Part shown: positions 15,250 to 58,361 of the stretch, piece by piece | How positions within the stretch are numbered: the first letter of the stretch is position 1 | Layout: each line of letters opens with the position of its first letter | DNA from: a virus | IMG/VR virus record: IMGVR_UViG_3300042988_001121 | Coordinates: 64,001 to 128,000 of that record | DNA: 64,000 bases | Strand: one strand, 5' to 3' | Made by a program: the position numbers and the translations under genes | Notes under the pieces: model-generated | Databases searched by the model: none | What the model saw: the letters and a program-made list of their open reading frames with translations, nothing else | Told to the model about the DNA's origin: nothing

Positions 15250-16773
15250 ATGTTACTGAGTCTCTGGACAGGATGGGGCGAAGATTGGAGCCTTCAGCAT
15301 AAAGTGACTTTTGATGGTGAGAATAAACTCATCATCATTGCTGATAGTGCGACTTCGCTCAATGTGAAAGCGGATATCTATTCTTCCTGGAAAGAATGGG
15401 TTCTTCTGCGTGATAACGGTAAATTCCTTCCTGCATTACGGGTCACGGGTGGCGATCCAATTGGGGTCGGGGCATATACCGGGGATGTTTACTTCTTGAT
15501 CAATGGCTGGCGAATCAAAATAAGTCATTCATGTGCAATTGATGGTGTGGTATACTCGGATGATTACCAAACGCCATTTGTTCAGACAGAAGGTACACAG
15601 ATCGTTACTAATAAAGTTTCTTCTCTGGTTTCGGTTGTTGCTCCTGTTGTGTCAGTAGATGGCTTGGTTGTTCCGACTGCTGCCGAGAATGCCGCTGCCG
15701 CTGCTTCAATGGTATGGAATTCTCCTGATAGAACTCTTACTGCCTATAATGGACCAACGGCGGCGCAGATTCGTTCTGAGATTGATGCATCATCGGTTAA
15801 ACTACAACAGATAAAATCTCTGATCGATTCGCTGGTTGTTCCTAGTGCAGTTGATATTAGAAACGAGATTGACACTAATTCAACTAAACTGAATACCGTT
15901 GTTGCGAACCAGACAACTATTTTGAATGCAATTCAAAACGTATCGGTGTCATCGGCTTCTATCAATACTCCTGCAATTTCATTTGAATTGATTCATGGTG
16001 TCGTAACCTCGGGTACAATTGATTCAACGAGAAACATCAACGGTAGTTCACATGTGATCACTGACTCGGCGCTTGCGTTCGATATCAATTACACATTTGA
16101 TATTGGATTGAATTCGATACCATCTGAGGTTGTTTTTGTTGGGCAGGTTCAAGATAAACATGAAGTCATTCAAGTTGCAGCATGGAACTATCAAACTAAC
16201 GCATGGAATCAGATCGGGACTATTTCTGGCTCCAACACAGTAACTACAAACAAATTTATTCTGTATCAACAATACACAGGAACTCAGGCAGGTCAGATCG
16301 GCGATGTTAGAATTCGTTTCTATTCTACCGCAATATCAGATATCATTCTATCGGTAGATCAGCTTTATGTTTCTTACGCGACCGTAGAAAGACCGACCGG
16401 ATATTCTGGTCACGCAGTCACCGCAACAGCGACCTCGATTCAATTGGGAGCAGATGCAGTTACTCTTGATAACTACTACGTACCCGCATTGTTATACGTT
16501 AATCATGGTACTGGCGCTCAACAATATGCCAAGGTTATCGGATATAACGGGGCAACACGAACACTGCAACTAGAATTACCGATGGTGGTTACGTTGGACA
16601 CAACAAGTCATATCACATTGTCACCTTGGGCAAATGGTGCCACTGTTGATACCAATGCGATTGCTAATGCTGTCTGGACTGCTCCTGTATCTTCAATGAC
16701 AGATAAGACAACAATTGGCGGCTGGATCACCAAAATGATTTTGACCATTCCTAAGTATATAGGGTTAAAGTAA
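15250..16773 (+). CDS. putative virion structural protein
   Basis: 507 aa, T/S/A-rich, in the structural operon. Confidence 0.6.
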   Translation: MLLSLWTGWGEDWSLQHKVTFDGENKLIIIADSATSLNVKADIYSSWKEWVLLRDNGKFLPALRVTGGDPIGVGAYTGDVYFLINGWRIKISHSCAIDGVVYSDDYQTPFVQTEGTQIVTNKVSSLVSVVAPVVSVDGLVVPTAAENAAAAASMVWNSPDRTLTAYNGPTAAQIRSEIDASSVKLQQIKSLIDSLVVPSAVDIRNEIDTNSTKLNTVVANQTTILNAIQNVSVSSASINTPAISFELIHGVVTSGTIDSTRNINGSSHVITDSALAFDINYTFDIGLNSIPSEVVFVGQVQDKHEVIQVAAWNYQTNAWNQIGTISGSNTVTTNKFILYQQYTGTQAGQIGDVRIRFYSTAISDIILSVDQLYVSYATVERPTGYSGHAVTATATSIQLGADAVTLDNYYVPALLYVNHGTGAQQYAKVIGYNGATRTLQLELPMVVTLDTTSHITLSPWANGATVDTNAIANAVWTAPVSSMTDKTTIGGWITKMILTIPKYIGLK

Positions 16774-42962: not shown

Positions 42963-44340
42963 TCTTGTTTTAGTAAGGAAACCTAACGACTAAAGATCGT
43001 TAGGAGGAATTGCGTTAAAAATCTTATCTTAAATACGATTATACAACAAACATCCCATTATGTCAACCCAACTTCGCGCCTACAAATACAGACTGTATCC
43101 AGATGTTGCTCAAACAGCAACGCTGGCACAGTTCTTTGGTGCGAAGCGTTGGATTTTCAATCATTTTCTCAATGAACAAAAAACTCGGTTTGATAATAAA
43201 GAAACCCACTTGAGTAACTTTGATTGTAACAAGTTGATTACAGAATTGAAGAAACAAGAAGATACCGATTGGCTTCGTGGGATTGATGATTGGGTCTTAA
43301 AAAGTTCATCAGAAGATTTAAGTGTAGCATACAAAAATTTCTTTGCTTCTATTACAGGAAAACGAAAAGGTCCGAATGTTAAGCCCCCTACCTTCAAGTC
43401 AAAAAATTCCAGACAGAGTTACAGAACTCGTGGCATCAAAATTGATTTTGAGAATAATTTAATTACCGTTCCAAAGATCAAGAGCATCAAGTGTATTATT
43501 CATCGTCAATTCGTAGGAACAATTAAACAAGCAACTGTTTCTAAGAATACTGATGGTCGTTATTATATTTCCATTCTGGTCGATGAAACTATCCAGTTGA
43601 AGCAAATGACTCATCGGGAAGTTGGTATTGACTTTGGGCTTAGAGATTTAGCTATTTTATCAACAGGAGTCAAATTCAATCATCCAGAACAAATGCTTTC
43701 AAGAACCAAGAAAGCATTGAAAAGAGCACAAAGAATCCTTGCTCGTAAAACAAAAGGGTCTAATTCTTATCATAAACAGCGTTTAGTTGTAGCAAAATTG
43801 TATTCAAGACTAACTCGAATGAGGAATGAATATTATCATCTGATTTCTCGTTACTTGGTTAATAATTTTGACGCAATATACCTTGAAGATTTAAACGTCA
43901 ATGGAATGTTGAAGAATCGTAGGTTATCAAGAAAGATACACGAAACCGCTTGGTCTACTTTGAAGAATATGATCAAGTATAAAGCAAATTATGCTGGAAA
44001 GACTGTTCATGAAATCAACCGTTGGCTCCCATCATCCAAGACTTGTTCTTGCTGTGGTTACAAACTTGACAAACTGAATCTCGATGTTCGTGAATGGACT
44101 TGTCCAGTTTGTAACGAGCACCATGACCGTGACCTAAACGCTGCTATAAACATTCTGAATCAAGGTCAAATTGATCTTTATGATTCTAAACAAAATTCCA
44201 GCGCAACACTGGAATTGGAGGCTTCGCCTCCAATGGCTTTGCAGAAACATTCTATGAAAATCGAGAGGTCCAGTTCTAAACGAACTGGTTGGAATGGGGA
44301 GCAAGCAAGCCTAACAGTATTTAGCTGTTAGGTGGTTGAC
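42963..44340 (+). mobile_element. non-autonomous IS200/IS605-family (IS1341-like) element, TnpB only
   Basis: LE hairpin CCTAACGA-ctaaaga-TCGTTAGG; RE hairpin CCTAACAG-tatttag-CTGTTAGG followed by TGGTTGAC; preceded by TCAT. Confidence 0.88.
43060..44331 (+). CDS. tnpB: TnpB RNA-guided endonuclease (IS605 OrfB)
   Basis: RAYKYRLYP HTH; RuvC GIDFG / YLEDL / DRDLNA; Zn finger CSCC..CPVC. Confidence 0.96.
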   Translation: MSTQLRAYKYRLYPDVAQTATLAQFFGAKRWIFNHFLNEQKTRFDNKETHLSNFDCNKLITELKKQEDTDWLRGIDDWVLKSSSEDLSVAYKNFFASITGKRKGPNVKPPTFKSKNSRQSYRTRGIKIDFENNLITVPKIKSIKCIIHRQFVGTIKQATVSKNTDGRYYISILVDETIQLKQMTHREVGIDFGLRDLAILSTGVKFNHPEQMLSRTKKALKRAQRILARKTKGSNSYHKQRLVVAKLYSRLTRMRNEYYHLISRYLVNNFDAIYLEDLNVNGMLKNRRLSRKIHETAWSTLKNMIKYKANYAGKTVHEINRWLPSSKTCSCCGYKLDKLNLDVREWTCPVCNEHHDRDLNAAINILNQGQIDLYDSKQNSSATLELEASPPMALQKHSMKIERSSSKRTGWNGEQASLTVFSC

Positions 44341-45101: not shown

Positions 45102-46337
45102 TCATGCCGTTTTATAAAAATCTATAAAACTGACTAGACATTTCAACGAGGTTGCTTTTGGTAACTCCAAAAGACTTACATCCTCTCTATGTCTGTAATC
45201 GGCTGATTCGTCCGATGTGAATCCATAAAGGTCATTCATACCTTTATTGTAAATGTTAACAGCAGCATTCAAGTCTCTATTATGATGGGAACCACAAGAA
45301 GGACAATCCCACTCTCTTATCGATAGCTCCATCTTTTCAATTCTATGACCACAAGAAGAACATGTCTTACTAGAAGGGTAGAAACGATCTATTTTATGGA
45401 AAGTTCTACCTCGCCAATTAGATTTATATGAAATCATTGACACCAATGATGACCATGATGCATCAGATATAGATTTTGATAATTTTCTATTCTTCAGCAT
45501 TCCTTTTATGTTCAAGTCTTCCATTACAATCGTATCATAATTTTTTACAAGCCAAGAACTGATATTGTGGTGAATAAAAGATCGCTGGTTACTAACTTCT
45601 CTGTGAATTCTAGCAACTTTTGTTCTTTGTATTTCCCTTCTATTGGAACCTTCTTGTTTTCTACTAAAGTGCTGCTGTGCGGTTTTTAGCTTCGCTTGGT
45701 TTTTACGAAACCATTTTGGATTAGAGATTTTCATTCCGTTACTAAGAATGCACAAATCTGTTAATCCAAGATCAACACCAATAGTTTTACCTGTTTGTTC
45801 GTAAAGAACTACGTCTTCTTCAACTAGAACAGATACAAAATATTGGTTTGTTTTATTTTTAGAGACAGTAACCGACTTGACCTGCCCATAAAACTTTCTA
45901 TCAATGACCACCTTCAATGGAGACATTTTAGGCAGTTTAATTTTACTGGTATCGAAATTTATGAATTTATTGAAGCCTATAGCCTGCCCCGGTATTCTGA
46001 AAGAATCTGTTGACACGCCCTTTTTCTTAAATTTCATCCTACCAAGTTTTGTTTTCCTTGAAGGGTTAAAATATTGCTTCTTTGTTTCAATGAAATCCAT
46101 GCGTTTTTGCTGAAGCGCATAACTTATTGTATCATTGAGCCAAGAAAACTCAGGCATATCTTTCAATATCTTTTCATCCATCGGTCGGTTCGGACCGTCC
46201 TTGCTATATGAATTGAAATTTGCCACCAGTTGATTCCAAACAAAACGCACGCAACCAAAAGTAGAATCCAAAAATTTAGACTGCTCTTTTGTTGGGTATA
46301 CCCTATATTTGTAGGCTCGAATTTGTTTTGGCATCAT
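45102..46337 (-). CDS. tnpB: TnpB RNA-guided endonuclease (IS607)
   Basis: RAYKYRVYP; GVDLG / VMEDL / NRDLNA; CSSC..CPSC. Confidence 0.96.
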   Translation of the reverse strand: MMPKQIRAYKYRVYPTKEQSKFLDSTFGCVRFVWNQLVANFNSYSKDGPNRPMDEKILKDMPEFSWLNDTISYALQQKRMDFIETKKQYFNPSRKTKLGRMKFKKKGVSTDSFRIPGQAIGFNKFINFDTSKIKLPKMSPLKVVIDRKFYGQVKSVTVSKNKTNQYFVSVLVEEDVVLYEQTGKTIGVDLGLTDLCILSNGMKISNPKWFRKNQAKLKTAQQHFSRKQEGSNRREIQRTKVARIHREVSNQRSFIHHNISSWLVKNYDTIVMEDLNIKGMLKNRKLSKSISDASWSSLVSMISYKSNWRGRTFHKIDRFYPSSKTCSSCGHRIEKMELSIREWDCPSCGSHHNRDLNAAVNIYNKGMNDLYGFTSDESADYRHREDVSLLELPKATSLKCLVSFIDFYKTA

Positions 46338-52363: not shown

Positions 52364-52564
52364 TTAAACCTTTCCTGCGTAGTCGGCACGCATGTACCAA
52401 TCAGGTGCAACATCTTGGTTGTTTCTTGAATTGTATTGCCGACAGAATTGCCGGGCAGATTCTTCGCTATCGAAGTATTTTACTTCGTCAACTTTCTGAC
52501 CCCAACCACGCTCTGACTCAATTATTTCTACTTTGTAGATGTTTCCGATTTTGATTTCTGCCAT
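52364..52564 (-). CDS. hypothetical protein
   Basis: IIESERGWGQK..YF.SEE.A motif; SD AGGAG. Confidence 0.75.
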   Translation of the reverse strand: MAEIKIGNIYKVEIIESERGWGQKVDEVKYFDSEESARQFCRQYNSRNNQDVAPDWYMRADYAGKV

Positions 52565-52589
52565 GATTAACTCCTGTTTTGTTGAATCA

Positions 52590-52623
52590 ATTATAACACA
52601 GGAAAAATTACGTGTAGATTATT
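52590..52623 (-). promoter_or_regulatory. early promoter cassette copy 14
   Basis: AATAATCTACACGTAATTTTTCCTGTGTTATAAT. Confidence 0.85.
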
Positions 52624-53069: not shown

Positions 53070-53380
53070 CCTCCAGTCGCTTTTGCAATTACCACTGCTA
53101 GACCTTTACCTTGAATGAGCCAAGTAAATTCTTCGATAGGTATCACTGCGTCTGTGCTGTTTGCCCACCTATCAAAGTCAGCACTCGGACAAGACACATC
53201 AACATCCCATGTAGTCCCAAAATGAAACCGAAAAAGCCTGCTACCTTTTTTGGCGATGCAGCACCCTTTCCCATAAAAGTCTCTTGATACTTTAAATCCA
53301 TGTCTTTTTAGGAATGTCTTAAACGCTGCTCGCTTTTTAAATTTAGGGTGAGAGAACGTCCACTTGATTCTTCTCATCAA
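53066..53380 (-). CDS. hypothetical protein
   Basis: Ends IAKATGG*. Confidence 0.65.
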   Translation of the reverse strand: MMRRIKWTFSHPKFKKRAAFKTFLKRHGFKVSRDFYGKGCCIAKKGSRLFRFHFGTTWDVDVSCPSADFDRWANSTDAVIPIEEFTWLIQGKGLAVVIAKATGG

Positions 53381-53670
53381 GACTCTCCAGTCGCTTTTGC
53401 GATTGCTGCACGAGCCATAAACGCAAAATGGTTTATTGTTGTGGTGCTGTACGTAACTGCACCATCAGTCGAAGACTGTTCGACATGAACGTAGTCAGAA
53501 AAAGATTTAAGCGCCTCCAGTAAATCAGGTGCTGCTGCAATTAGTCGTGCATTGGCTGGTGATGGGTCTGTCACAAAGTCGCAGATAAACTTCTCGTCTG
53601 CACCAAAAAGGTATCCGACCTCATACTCGCAATCAGGCACAAATTTCCAAGGTGCTGGTGTGTGGCTCAT
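53377..53670 (-). CDS. MSHTP/ANARLIAAAP-family phage protein, copy 1
   Basis: MSHTPAPW..ANARLIAAAPDLLEAL..AAIAKATGES. Confidence 0.8.
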   Translation of the reverse strand: MSHTPAPWKFVPDCEYEVGYLFGADEKFICDFVTDPSPANARLIAAAPDLLEALKSFSDYVHVEQSSTDGAVTYSTTTINHFAFMARAAIAKATGES

Positions 53671-53807
53671 TTCATTTCTCCACGTATCTTGTTGTAAATC
53701 TCGTCGGCAGTCGAGCCTCTTTCCTCGCAATGACTTATAAATTCAGTCCAATTTGCACCAAGAAAATCCAGTAGTACATTTATCTCAAATTCATCCAATT
53801 CAGTCAT
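53667..53807 (-). CDS. small hypothetical protein ending GEMK (not in ORF track)
   Basis: MTELDEFEINVLLDFLGANWTEFISHCEERGSTADEIYNKIRGEMK*. Confidence 0.7.
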   Translation of the reverse strand: MTELDEFEINVLLDFLGANWTEFISHCEERGSTADEIYNKIRGEMK

Positions 53808-53833
53808 TTCATTTCTCCGTCAGAATGTGTGGC

Positions 53834-54040
53834 TCATAATTCCACCCCGCACATAGGGCAGTATGTGGCGAAGACTTGCACTGCATTTGACCTTGCTTTT
53901 GGATGCACCTTGCACGTAGCCAGCAATATGCGCTCTTTGTCATCGCTACCTAGACTAATTGTGTCCATCAATCTAGTGTTATATGGTTTTAAAAGCTCAT
54001 TGAGCTTTGCTACACAGTCGTGTTTTGTTTCTGCTGTCAT
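53834..54040 (-). CDS. small Zn-ribbon protein (MTAETK family), copy 1
   Basis: HDC ... YCPMCG. Confidence 0.75.
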   Translation of the reverse strand: MTAETKHDCVAKLNELLKPYNTRLMDTISLGSDDKERILLATCKVHPKARSNAVQVFATYCPMCGVEL

Positions 54041-54291
54041 TTCATGTCTCTTTCAGACTCTTTGATAACGGCTTCCATTTGCACGAAGGCTCTCAAATAC
54101 CCTTCAGCCTCAATCATTCCGGCTGAAAGACCTTGCTGCTTATAGTCATCATATAAAGCGCGAGCATTTTCAACGCCACTTAAAATGTCATGTTTAATCC
54201 ACTCATAGGACTCAATCGTTTTCTTTGCTTTTTCCAGCAAAGGAGGCTCTTTGTAATACGTGATGCCGTTAACTGTTATTGAGTTACTCAT
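54037..54291 (-). CDS. hypothetical protein
   Basis: Start at a GGAGAAATGAAATG joint. Confidence 0.7.
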   Translation of the reverse strand: MSNSITVNGITYYKEPPLLEKAKKTIESYEWIKHDILSGVENARALYDDYKQQGLSAGMIEAEGYLRAFVQMEAVIKESERDMK

Positions 54292-54695
54292 TTCATTTCT
54301 CCAGTCGCTTTTGTGATTGCTGCGCGTAATGTTTTAATGGCGTCTAAATCTTGTTCGTCTGCTCCGAAAAACTCGCCATATGAGTTCAATCTAGATAGAG
54401 CAAGCATTGCCGCCTCTAGCAACTCAGGTGCTGCTGCAATTAAGCGTGCATTGGCAAGAGCTGTCTCTTTGTGCTTTTCTTCGTCATCATCGAAGTCATA
54501 GCAATCCGTATCAATGTCGCATATATGTGCTGTATGTCCTTTGAGATGGCTTCGTGTGCATTCGCGCGGATTTCCGGCATAAACGCCATGCTGACTTTCA
54601 TATAGCAGCTTATTGGTTATTTCATCTGATGAGAGAAGTTCTCGCTGCATCGCTAATTCCTTCCAGATATACCAAGGCCCAGGTGTGTGGCTCAT
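54288..54695 (-). CDS. MSHTP/ANARLIAAAP-family phage protein, copy 2
   Basis: MSHTPGPW..ANARLIAAAPELLEAA..AAITKATGEMK. Confidence 0.8.
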   Translation of the reverse strand: MSHTPGPWYIWKELAMQRELLSSDEITNKLLYESQHGVYAGNPRECTRSHLKGHTAHICDIDTDCYDFDDDEEKHKETALANARLIAAAPELLEAAMLALSRLNSYGEFFGADEQDLDAIKTLRAAITKATGEMK

Positions 54696-54892
54696 AATTT
54701 CACCCCGCACATAGGGCAGTAAGTGGCGAAGAATATTACGGGCTTTTTCTTAATGGCTGAATCCGCTTTTTCCGTAGTAACCGCAATTCGATCTCTGCCA
54801 TCCATAGTGATGAAAGATGTCAATCGCGTGTTGTGCTTTTTAAGTAATTCATTGATGCGCTCTACGCAGTCGTGTTTTGTTTCTGCTGTCAT
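54692..54892 (-). CDS. small Zn-ribbon protein (MTAETK family), copy 2
   Basis: MTAETKHDC ... FATYCPMCGVKL. Confidence 0.75.
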   Translation of the reverse strand: MTAETKHDCVERINELLKKHNTRLTSFITMDGRDRIAVTTEKADSAIKKKPVIFFATYCPMCGVKL

Positions 54893-55092
54893 TTCATTTC
54901 TCCTTTGGGTACGCAAACCATCTTCAACCCTTTTGCCAATTTTTTGGCTTCAATTGACGCAAATTGGCATGCTTTGAGCGAGTCGAATTCCTGCGTAGTA
55001 ATGGCGTATGACCTGTATGTGCTTGGGTATGCTGCGGCGTCCGTCTGTCCTGCGGATACCGCCCAAGACATAATGAGAATCCATGCTGTCAT
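54889..55092 (-). CDS. small secreted/membrane protein
   Basis: MTAWILIMSWAV...QEFDSLKAC..A...CVPKGEMK. Confidence 0.7.
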   Translation of the reverse strand: MTAWILIMSWAVSAGQTDAAAYPSTYRSYAITTQEFDSLKACQFASIEAKKLAKGLKMVCVPKGEMK

Positions 55093-55114
55093 TTCATTTC
55101 TCCTTATTAATAGT

Positions 55115-55260
55115 TGATGGTGGCAGGCGCTGATCTCCTGCATGACCTTTTAGCCGTTTATGACCGCTTACAAAAAGGACGGTATTACGCAAGACAAGGT
55201 AGCTACTCCCTGCGTAGTCAAACTTTTGTCCCTGTGCATCAGCCTGCACATTCACCATCA
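55115..55260 (-). ncRNA. C4-like antisense RNA (P1/P7 c4-type cloverleaf) with enlarged central domain
   Basis: TGATGGTG/CACCATCA closing stem; GTGAATGTGCAGGCTGATGCAC 5' hairpin; GCAGGAGATCAGCGCCTGC 3' hairpin; complementary loops GCTGAT/ATCAGC. Confidence 0.75.
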
Positions 55261-55377
55261 GGTGTGATGACTGCTTACTTTCTCCGCGTTTTTGTGTGAT
55301 TCGAGTACGACCACCGCATCACAGATTTCGACCAGTCATCACGCCTGATAGCCCTCGCCGGAGCGAGGACGTATTAC

Positions 55378-55764
55378 TTATTCCTGCTTAATCGGACACA
55401 TGGCTTTGCCCCATGCAATGGCGTCTTCTTTGGTGAGGAAAAAAAGTCCGCGCTTCTGGTGTTGTTTGTCACAGCAGTCATCTATCCAATGGGTCATATC
55501 GTAGAAACTAGGTAAACCCGTTGATGGGTAGTAATATGTTTGAGCCATCTCTAGCTTCCCCATATAAGGCGCTGGCAATTCAAAGCCGTTGAAGGTGATG
55601 GTTTCTGGCTTGACTCGATAGTGTTCTTTTCTGTACATCACGTTAGATACCTGATATAGCACTGTGGGCCAGTCTTCATTTATCCAATCACCTTCGCCGT
55701 CTTGCCACTGAATCTGTTTTCCATCTGCAATAGCTTGCAGGATTTCTGCGTATTGGTGTTTCAT
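55378..55764 (-). CDS. hypothetical phage protein
   Basis: MKHQYAEILQAIADGKQIQ..YRVKPETITFNG.E.PAP; SD AGGAG. Confidence 0.8.
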   Translation of the reverse strand: MKHQYAEILQAIADGKQIQWQDGEGDWINEDWPTVLYQVSNVMYRKEHYRVKPETITFNGFELPAPYMGKLEMAQTYYYPSTGLPSFYDMTHWIDDCCDKQHQKRGLFFLTKEDAIAWGKAMCPIKQE

Positions 55765-55788
55765 ACCATCTCCTGTTTTGTTGAATCA

Positions 55789-55823
55789 ATTATAACACAA
55801 GTAAAGGTTATGTGTAGATTATT
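55789..55823 (-). promoter_or_regulatory. early promoter cassette copy 15
   Basis: AATAATCTACACATAACCTTTACTTGTGTTATAAT. Confidence 0.88.
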
Positions 55824-55878: not shown

Positions 55879-56460
55879 TCACTTATCGATGCCGAGTGCA
55901 ATCAATTCTTCTTTTGTCAACTTTGCTTTAGCAGAAGCGATGAGAGATGTACGATCCGCTTCTTCGATGGCTGCTTTAAGAATGTGAACAATCTTTTTAA
56001 GGTCAACATCATGAATAGTCGCCTTCTTTTCCTCAACTTCCTTCATCAATTCTTTACAGTAATCATAATTACATTCGTTTGAAGGAACATCAACTACTTT
56101 CTTTCTTTTCTTCGAGGCTTTCTTTATTTCAGTCACAATTTCCACCAAGGGGTGCATAGAGACTTCAAAATTTTCAAAATCGGAACTTGATGACGTTGAA
56201 CTGTCATAAGTGTAGTGGCAAGGTGTTCCTTGGTGATACTGATAATTGCCGCCTTTATATCCAGTAAATGTATCGATCAATGCACACTCAACGTGCTTAA
56301 TGGATTCATCGATAGTCACTTCATCAAAATTAAATGCGACTTCATAATAATACCCTCGGTGGCTGTGAGGGTTAACAGGCAGATCACTCACCCAACTTCC
56401 ACCATAACCGGGAGCAGATTTGATGGTTTTGAGAATTCGAAGAACTTCACCTAATTTCAC
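55879..56460 (-). CDS. hypothetical protein
   Basis: GTG start after SD AGGAG; PHSHRGYYYEVAF..TFTGYKGG motif. Confidence 0.75.
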   Translation of the reverse strand: MKLGEVLRILKTIKSAPGYGGSWVSDLPVNPHSHRGYYYEVAFNFDEVTIDESIKHVECALIDTFTGYKGGNYQYHQGTPCHYTYDSSTSSSSDFENFEVSMHPLVEIVTEIKKASKKRKKVVDVPSNECNYDYCKELMKEVEEKKATIHDVDLKKIVHILKAAIEEADRTSLIASAKAKLTKEELIALGIDK

Positions 56461-56484
56461 AACAACTCCTGTTTTGTTGAATCT

Positions 56485-56518
56485 ATTGTAACACAGACAA
56501 ACTTATGTGTAGATTATT
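56485..56518 (-). promoter_or_regulatory. early promoter cassette copy 16
   Basis: AATAATCTACACATAAGTTTGTCTGTGTTACAAT. Confidence 0.9.
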
Positions 56519-57158: not shown

Positions 57159-58361
57159 ATGCAACACAAGGCATATAAGTTTAGACTGTACCCAACGAAA
57201 GTTCAAGAAGCTCTCTTGAACCAAACTTTTGGGTGCGTTCGTTTCTTATGGAACCAACATGTTGCTGCTTTCAATAGTTTTTCTTCCTTCGGTCCAAACA
57301 AAATTGTAACATCAAAACTATTGAAGGACACAGAAGAATTTTCTTGGTTGAATTCTGTTTCTGCGGCTGCTCTGCAACAAAAAGATAACGATTTTTCTGA
57401 ATTTAAGAAGCAGTTTTTCTCCAAAACACGTAAAAAGAAAATTGAGCGCCCTAAATTCAAAAAGAAAGGACAGAAAGACTCTTATCGTCTTCCTAATCAA
57501 AAGTTTACTTTGGACCAAGAAACAAAAAGAATTCGACTCGAAAAAATTGGTAAAGTGAAAATAGTTTTAGACAAAACAATACCAGAAGGCGCTAAGTTTT
57601 TATCGGTAACAATAACAAAAAATCAAACCGGTGAGTATTACGCATCTGTTTTGGTTGAACAAGAAATAAGATGTAAGGAAACAACAGGAAATAGTATTGG
57701 TATAGACCTCGGGTTTATTGATTTGATGACTCTATCAAATGGAATGGTTATACGCAACCCAAGGTGGTTTCGTAAAAATCAAGCGAAGCTAAAAAGAAAA
57801 CAAAAATCATTAAGTAGAAAAAAGATAGGCTCTCGTAGGAGAGAAAAACAAAGAATTGTTGTTGCAAAACAGCATCTAAAAGTTGCTCGACAGCGAGAAT
57901 GGTATCATCATCAAATTTCATCGTGGTTGGTTAATAATTTTGACACTATTTGTATGGAAGACTTGAATTTGAATGGAATGAAAAAATTTCTAGGAAAATC
58001 TGTCAATGATGCCGGTCTTTCTAATCTAATGAATAAAATTGAGTATAAATCTAAGTGGTACGGAAGAACCTTCCATAAAGTGGATAGATTCTTTGCATCC
58101 TCAAAAACATGTTCTTCTTGTGGCAATAAAACAGCGTTTGGTATGGATGTGCGAGAATGGACATGTCAGGCGTGTGGTACATTCCACGACAGAGATTTGA
58201 ATGCATCAATAAACATTTTGAAAAAAGGTCTTAGTGACCTTTATCAATATACTTCGGCTGAGTTAACCGAAGTCATTGAACGTGGAGAAGTCGTAAGACC
58301 TAGATTGGGTGAAATTCATCCAATGGTGGCTACTTCTATGAAGCGTTTAGCGAAACTGTAA
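57159..58361 (+). CDS. tnpB: TnpB RNA-guided endonuclease
   Basis: KAYKFRLYP; GIDLG / CMEDL / DRDLNA; CSSC..CQAC. Confidence 0.96.
   Translation: MQHKAYKFRLYPTKVQEALLNQTFGCVRFLWNQHVAAFNSFSSFGPNKIVTSKLLKDTEEFSWLNSVSAAALQQKDNDFSEFKKQFFSKTRKKKIERPKFKKKGQKDSYRLPNQKFTLDQETKRIRLEKIGKVKIVLDKTIPEGAKFLSVTITKNQTGEYYASVLVEQEIRCKETTGNSIGIDLGFIDLMTLSNGMVIRNPRWFRKNQAKLKRKQKSLSRKKIGSRRREKQRIVVAKQHLKVARQREWYHHQISSWLVNNFDTICMEDLNLNGMKKFLGKSVNDAGLSNLMNKIEYKSKWYGRTFHKVDRFFASSKTCSSCGNKTAFGMDVREWTCQACGTFHDRDLNASINILKKGLSDLYQYTSAELTEVIERGEVVRPRLGEIHPMVATSMKRLAKL

Follow-up and report, generated by a model that had tools for sequence, protein, structure and literature searches.

The window analysed here is a stretch of 64,000 nucleotides from the IMG/VR virus record IMGVR_UViG_3300042988_001121, and it belongs to a phage genome of 178,209 bp. 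The DNA sequencing runs containing the stretch come from a freshwater metagenome, and the phage is a distant T4-like phage. Its T4-type TerL is 54% identical to the TerL of Synechococcus phage BUCT-ZZ01, and the genome also encodes UvsX, a gp41-like helicase, a family B DNA polymerase, NAMPT and an RNA ligase. No relatives of the phage were found among GenBank phages by nucleotide BLAST of the spacer described below and of the surrounding 10 kb, and a protein-based locus search with the gene upstream of the spacer returned none either. Three genes of the TnpB/IS605 OrfB type lie within 15 kb (43060-44331, plus strand; 45102-46337, minus strand; 57159-58361, plus strand).

The subject of this work is an RNA element of about 146 nt on the minus strand at 55115-55260. 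It is intercistronic, with a gene for a 128-aa protein on one side and an array of small, overlapping genes on the other, all of them encoded by the minus strand, and 22 nt separate it from the next start codon. A promoter scan placed a promoter-like site about 440 nt upstream of the element, from which the 128-aa gene, the element and the small-gene array are probably transcribed together. Three copies of a block of about 40 nt (repeat family D3), which on the minus strand resembles an extended -10 promoter with a ribosome-binding site, lie in the region (52560-52600, 55759-55799 and 56455-56495), each followed by a gene. The genes of the array (53377-55143, minus strand) are joined by stop/start overlaps in a recurring GGAGAAATGAAATGA junction. 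The array contains two paralogous pairs, 53834-54040 with 54692-54916 and 53377-53670 with 54288-54695, and both members of the latter match phrog_1273. The proteins encoded downstream of the element match only PHROGs of unknown function. The features of the spacer and its promoter are as follows:

55789-55818, minus strand: promoter-like site with an extended -10, from the promoter scan
55353-55368, minus strand: small G+C-rich hairpin right after the stop codon of the upstream gene, without a U-run; the terminator scan made no call
55255-55351, minus strand: upstream domain A, a stem of 17-19 bp (55333-55351 with 55255-55273) around a smaller hairpin, from inverted repeat I2 and the spacer fold
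55253-55260, minus strand: 5' strand of the closing stem, acceptor-like, 8 nt, partner 55115-55122; changes on both sides in 6 of the 8 pairs across the family
55250-55252, minus strand: AAU linker between closing stem and hairpin 1, kept in 99 of 100 family members
55234-55249, minus strand: hairpin 1, in D-arm position, with a 5-bp stem and the 6-nt loop GGCUGA, the same in 96 of 100 members
55142-55233, minus strand: variable cargo (insert) of 92 nt with two hairpins, in the position of the anticodon arm of a tRNA
55123-55141, minus strand: hairpin 2, in T-arm position, with a 5-bp stem and a 9-nt loop containing UCAGC, abutting the 3' strand of the closing stem
55115-55122, minus strand: 3' strand of the closing stem, from the sequence and family covariation
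55111-55114, minus strand: tail ACUA, one base off the NCCA-like consensus of the family

A preliminary description of this locus, made from the sequence alone, had reported a closing stem, two hairpins with complementary loops and an insert of about 90 nt with further stems. Inspection of the sequence found all of these stems and loops on the minus strand, and covariation within the family described below backs the structure. The loops of hairpins 1 and 2 in the window are complementary over 5-6 nt. Folded alone, the element is unremarkable (z = -1.35). The complete spacer of 286 nt folds better than 100 of 100 shuffles (z = -3.4), mainly because of the 17-19 bp stem of the upstream domain. 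The 3' strand of this stem shares 6 nt with the closing stem of the element, and the predicted long stem may serve RNase III as a cleavage site or compete with the fold of the element. On predicted folds, about 10 of 18 loci were judged by eye to have a similar long stem that continues into the closing stem. In some loci (L008, L017 and P1), long stems before the element enclose canonical T-arm-like hairpins.

The element belongs to a widespread family of non-coding, tRNA-shaped RNAs found in proteobacterial phages. A core of 23 nt, comprising the end of the closing stem, the linker and hairpin 1, is present without mismatch in 17 IMG/VR contigs. These share the same build, while their closing-stem sequences differ and their insert lengths vary widely. 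The same 23-mer was found, again exact, in 107 stretches of GTDB species genomes of gamma-, beta- and some alpha-proteobacteria. The common build consists of a closing stem of 7-9 bp, AAU, a 5-bp hairpin with the loop GGCUGA, a cargo of 28-162 nt, and a second 5-bp hairpin, which has a UCAGC-containing loop and abuts the closing stem. When the three helices are counted together with the pairing between the loops, the alignment of the 17 copies is 95.7% paired, and the nine pairs changed on both sides all lie in helices. A covariance model built from this alignment, window included (R1), detected full-length copies in every IMG/VR locus searched, amounting to at least 100 copies at 40-100 bits. 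The window element, itself among the 17 seeds of the model, scores 100.4 bits; independent support comes from about 83 copies outside the seed set, at 40-90 bits. The element is single-copy in its phage genome according to R1. A second scan of IMG/VR, in which the loop of hairpin 1 was left free, yielded at least 120 stretches, and BLAST against GenBank phages gave 221 records. R1 found no copy in T4, P4 or HK022.

Across an alignment of 100 copies, the three helices are 97.2% paired, and 12 of their 18 pairs have changes on both sides. None of 500 shuffles equalled this pairing, and slid controls pair at no more than 55%. Hairpin 2 has such changes in 4 of 5 stem pairs, and pair 2 of the hairpin 1 stem alternates between U-A and C-G. 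Because G-U pairs occur on the element's strand only, the RNA strand is fixed as minus in the window. The cargo folds are unrelated across the family. The cargo type of the window is shared with the closest relative, L033, and compensatory changes are found in both cargo hairpins. This relative is a lambdoid contig, in which a CI-like repressor gene is followed by the element and then by RecE/RecT-like genes. The preliminary description had spoken of an RNA of temperate-phage type inside a lytic T4-like genome, and as far as temperate-phage type and T4-like genome are concerned this is fair: the nearest relative lies behind a CI-like repressor, and the host genome has T4-type TerL, UvsX and a gp41-like helicase. 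One other cargo (L105:3942-4059) contains a canonical D-arm and T-arm without an anticodon arm, i.e., a tRNA fragment nested in the tRNA-shaped scaffold.

When the window and eight homologous loci were scanned permissively with Rfam, the element had no match; the sole permissive match in the window was freshwater-2 on a ribosome-binding site (19 bits, E = 3), a chance hit. The family is absent from Rfam 15, and no description of it was found in the searchable literature. In a 2023 survey of IMG/VR, structured RNAs without a name were predicted in their thousands, tRNA-like ones among them (PMC10690425), and this set may include the family. One preprint catalogues sRNAs of lambda (LPR1/PreS), and the Pas sRNAs of another preprint are Hfq-type sRNAs with terminators.

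The geometry of the element is tRNA-like. The closing stem measures 7-9 bp in 73 of 85 distinct copies and is adjoined by hairpin 2, and the consensus of the tail is [A/C]-C-C-A, with an exact NCCA in 13 of the 85 copies against about one expected. The family is also linked to tRNA genes: 12 of the 100 copies have one or more at a distance of at most 400 nt, and all 25 of these tRNAs lie on the element's strand. In six copies, the tRNA gene begins 1-8 nt downstream, and among the 14 loci with a tRNA gene, 12 have it beside the element. The conserved part lacks an anticodon arm as well as canonical D- and T-loops. The window element itself is far from any tRNA gene, with none within 58 kb: the two tRNAs of the phage genome, Arg(tct) and Met(cat), are encoded outside the window at C1:60957-61033 and C1:61725-61799, about 58 kb away. 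The same two species directly follow the element in Klebsiella phage ZCKP8 and are its commonest neighbours elsewhere.

Identification of the element as a tRNA or tmRNA was rejected, since neither ARAGORN nor Rfam (RF00005, RF00023, RF04321) made a call and it has no cloverleaf anticodon arm, and the phage genome has no tag-like module; ARAGORN made no call on it at default settings, and relaxed thresholds produced noise only. Phage HK022 has put RNA. The element is not a put RNA, because R1 finds nothing in HK022. The RNAs rnaC and rnaD of T4 were also set aside, as their sequences look different and R1 has no match in T4.

The two loops are conserved to an unusual degree. Of 100 copies, 96 have GGCUGA as the loop of hairpin 1, and the loop of hairpin 2 nearly always contains UCAGC or UCAGU. 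Among the variants in which position 2 of loop 1 has changed from G to A, two of three carry a compensating U in loop 2 (Fisher p = 0.034), and a weak second copy in locus L017 has wholly different loops that are nevertheless complementary over five positions. These 3-4 variant copies support kissing of the two loops. The near-invariance of the loops suggests that their sequence may be read by something else, instead of or besides kissing.

The carriers of the family include well-known phages. In HK620, the element occupies 16092-16190, between the late promoter/qut site and the terminator tQ and before the holin gene; the same leader slot of the late operon is occupied by tRNA genes in phages L and Sf6 (PMC8022706). 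In Pseudomonas phage PAJU2, a Q-like gene is followed by the element and then by a terminator, and in locus L092 the order is operator/promoter, the element within about a dozen bases, terminator and early gene. Upstream, the neighbours on the same strand are often CI-like repressors or Q-like antiterminators; downstream, N-like proteins, holins, small terminase subunits and SSB are among the neighbours. A terminator-like site follows the element in 31 of 94 copies, compared with 17 of 94 on the control strand. In ZCKP8, genes for tRNA-Arg(tct) and tRNA-Met(cat) come directly after the element, which is on the strand opposite to all neighbouring genes. Phage P1 has two copies, at 69815-69921 and 70076-70204 (L150:816-922 and L150:1077-1205). 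Both lie within the tRNA operon of P1 (Asn, Thr ... tciABC ... Ile), beneath the opposite-strand ORFs plp and upl and at a distance of 21 kb from c4.

A different module was noticed about 190 nt upstream of the element in both HK620 (L021:2190-2340) and ZCKP8 (L022:2200-2316). It gives sub-threshold tmRNA matches and contains a tag-like frame encoding a ten-residue tag that ends in LAVA and is followed by a stop. BLAST located this module in 725 phage records of GenBank, among them ViI-like, Felix O1-like, N4-like and T1-like phages. The phage genome analysed here lacks it.

Several known RNAs resemble the element in part. The family shares genomic slots, strand and tight spacing with the tRNA genes of phages (L, Sf6, P1 and T1-like phages), along with a 7-9 bp acceptor-like stem that stacks on an arm of 5 bp, and its tail consensus resembles NCCA; it differs from them in that its elbow consists of Watson-Crick loop-loop pairing and in having neither an anticodon arm nor a canonical D- or T-loop. 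The tRNA-like domain of tmRNA (RF00023) likewise combines a tRNA-shaped scaffold with a large variable domain in place of the anticodon arm, whereas the element has no T-loop consensus, no G3-U70 pair and, in the window, no tag reading frame. YrlA (PMC4201824) and the T4 RNAs rnaC and rnaD are tRNA-mimicking non-coding RNAs encoded beside tRNA genes, also in phages, with functions that are unknown or accessory, but no sequence or model match links them to the element. YrlA has canonical T- and D-arms plus a Ro-binding stem (PMC4201824).

The preliminary description had assigned the element to the C4 antisense RNAs of P1/P7-type phages. This identity is contradicted by the Rfam C4 model, the architecture and the genomic context alike, and the element is not a member of C4. 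With a criterion of at least 45 bits, the C4 covariance model (RF01695) had no match at gathering score in the window, and at E<=10 it had none over 54700-55700 or in the 178,209-bp genome. The same library scored 68.8 bits for c4 and 51 bits for the a1/b1 target motif (RF03163) in P1, which served as the positive control. GUGAAU and GCUGA/UCAGC, given in that description as the signature of C4, are absent from the Rfam C4 consensus, so that attribution was mistaken. C4 (RF01695, clan CL00128) is likewise a small phage RNA with a closing stem around hairpins and a C-rich 3' end beside the stem. However, its closing stem has 17 bp instead of 8 bp, and its hairpins are directly adjacent within a total of about 77-87 nt, whereas the element has a 3-nt linker and a 92-nt insert in about 146 nt. 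The loops of C4 are specificity determinants that pair with nearby a1/b1 and a2/b2, while those of the element are invariant and mutually paired. Finally, P1 has both RNAs, at separate loci.

The antisense role that accompanied this assignment, with the insert as the specificity domain, found no support either. No c4-a1b1 motif (RF03163) was found, and the complementarity of the whole spacer, including the cargo, to the phage's own genome is at chance level. Between the cargo and its 1.5-kb flanks in 88 loci, complementarity amounts to 8.39 nt, compared with 8.36 nt in shuffles. A search downstream of the element for an antirepressor gene, as in an icd-ant operon, found none. C4 of P1/P7 is an RNase P substrate. 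Of the earlier proposal of a processed tRNA-like RNA of C4 type, the tRNA-like build stands and the C4 membership falls; because of that build, processing of the element by RNase P is plausible.

We propose that the element is a tRNA mimic belonging to a widespread family, matured by tRNA-processing enzymes and acting on a conserved host factor, and we give this reading a probability of about 0.6. The element would be transcribed on the minus strand in the operon between the 128-aa gene and the small-gene array. In the predicted molecule, the closing stem would stack on hairpin 2 as an acceptor stem does on the T arm of a tRNA, pairing between the loops of hairpins 1 and 2 would replace the D-loop/T-loop elbow, and the variable cargo domain would take the place of the anticodon arm. 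We infer that host tRNA-maturing enzymes would excise the element, with RNase P acting at the 5' end and trimming producing the N-CCA-like 3' end. The product would be a stable tRNA mimic that may engage, in trans, a highly conserved host tRNA-binding factor through the invariant elbow and the acceptor end. A conserved partner is favoured by the occurrence of the exact 23-nt core across alpha-, beta- and gamma-proteobacterial genomes while stems and cargo vary. Against mimicry and processing stand the ACUA tail in the window, the absence of a nearby tRNA gene and the fact that neither ARAGORN nor Rfam calls the element a tRNA. In addition, the predicted upstream long stem could hinder RNase P by sequestering 6 nt of the closing stem.

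The tRNA genes of phages have come to be regarded as a means of countering host defences directed at tRNA. A bolder version of the proposal, which we put forward only tentatively and consider unlikely to be right in full, is that this previously undescribed tRNA mimic captures a universal host tRNA-binding factor by its kissing elbow and acceptor end. It might then serve as a decoy against tRNA-directed defence nucleases, or stabilise and deliver its swappable cargo RNA via the tRNA maturation/CCA pathway, and it would be a cassette exchanged among P1, lambdoids, T1-like phages, N4-like phages and the T4-like phage described here.

A serious rival, although in our estimate also an improbable one, holds that the element acts only in cis, as a leader element: it would provide a signal for processing or punctuation (by RNase P or RNase III) or serve the antitermination or stability of its transcript, with no role in trans. 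It draws on the promoter-proximal position in temperate phages, seen in the gene order of L092 and in HK620 and PAJU2, where the element lies between late promoter and terminator, and on the terminator-like site behind about one third of the copies. The upstream long stem resembles an RNase III site, and the window element itself lies between two cistrons, 22 nt ahead of a start codon. A purely cis-acting signal is, however, hard to reconcile with two observations: virulent phages have the element as a unit within their tRNA clusters, and in ZCKP8 all neighbouring genes are on the other strand. The conservation of loops and linker across host classes also exceeds the needs of a mere cleavage site, the cargo structure is conserved within a subfamily (the window and L033), and HK022, a phage with put RNA, has no copy. 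Position speaks in part for a C4-type immunity RNA as well, that is, a processed antisense RNA whose loops or insert would pair with a nearby mRNA and repress the downstream operon: many members of the family lie in leaders of immunity regions, behind CI-like repressors or before N-like genes, and there is a loose resemblance in topology, the C-rich 3' end included. We nevertheless regard this reading as highly improbable. RF01695 and RF03163 match neither the window nor the genome, as opposed to 68.8 and 51 bits in the P1 control, and the loops do not vary between phages that differ in immunity and host class, which is the opposite of what is expected of specificity determinants. Complementarity is at chance, no antirepressor gene lies downstream, and the copies in P1 are apart from c4.

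A functionless remnant, either a decayed tRNA gene or a leftover fragment of an attachment site, would explain why tRNA slots are occupied and why canonical T-arm or D-arm pieces are found in some cargos and upstream domains (L105, L008 and L017). This explanation is effectively refuted by the covariation: about 100 copies display strong purifying selection and compensatory change, the 23-nt core is invariant in three proteobacterial classes, and the conserved part has no canonical T- or D-loop. A small protein gene deserves practically no credence. A frame of 54 codons (55094-55258, minus strand) is open over the element in the window, and in ZCKP8 a hypothetical protein, gp60, is annotated over the copy (L022:2507-2605). 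Yet 33% of the copies keep an open frame throughout the element, compared with 47% of shuffles, the element lengths are evenly spread modulo 3 rather than being multiples of three, and the variation tracks base pairing and not codons. The window frame and gp60 of ZCKP8 are probably not genes, and the P1 ORFs plp and upl may be spurious.

The findings thus correct probable mis-annotations, in which small ORFs have been drawn over such RNAs, as with gp60 of ZCKP8 and possibly plp and upl of P1. The presence of the family in the model phages P1 and HK620 makes it directly testable in laboratory E. coli. A non-decoding, tRNA-shaped RNA that occupies tRNA slots and is conserved at the level of individual bases across phages of alpha-, beta- and gamma-proteobacteria points to an unexplored interaction, at the RNA level, with a core machine of the host.
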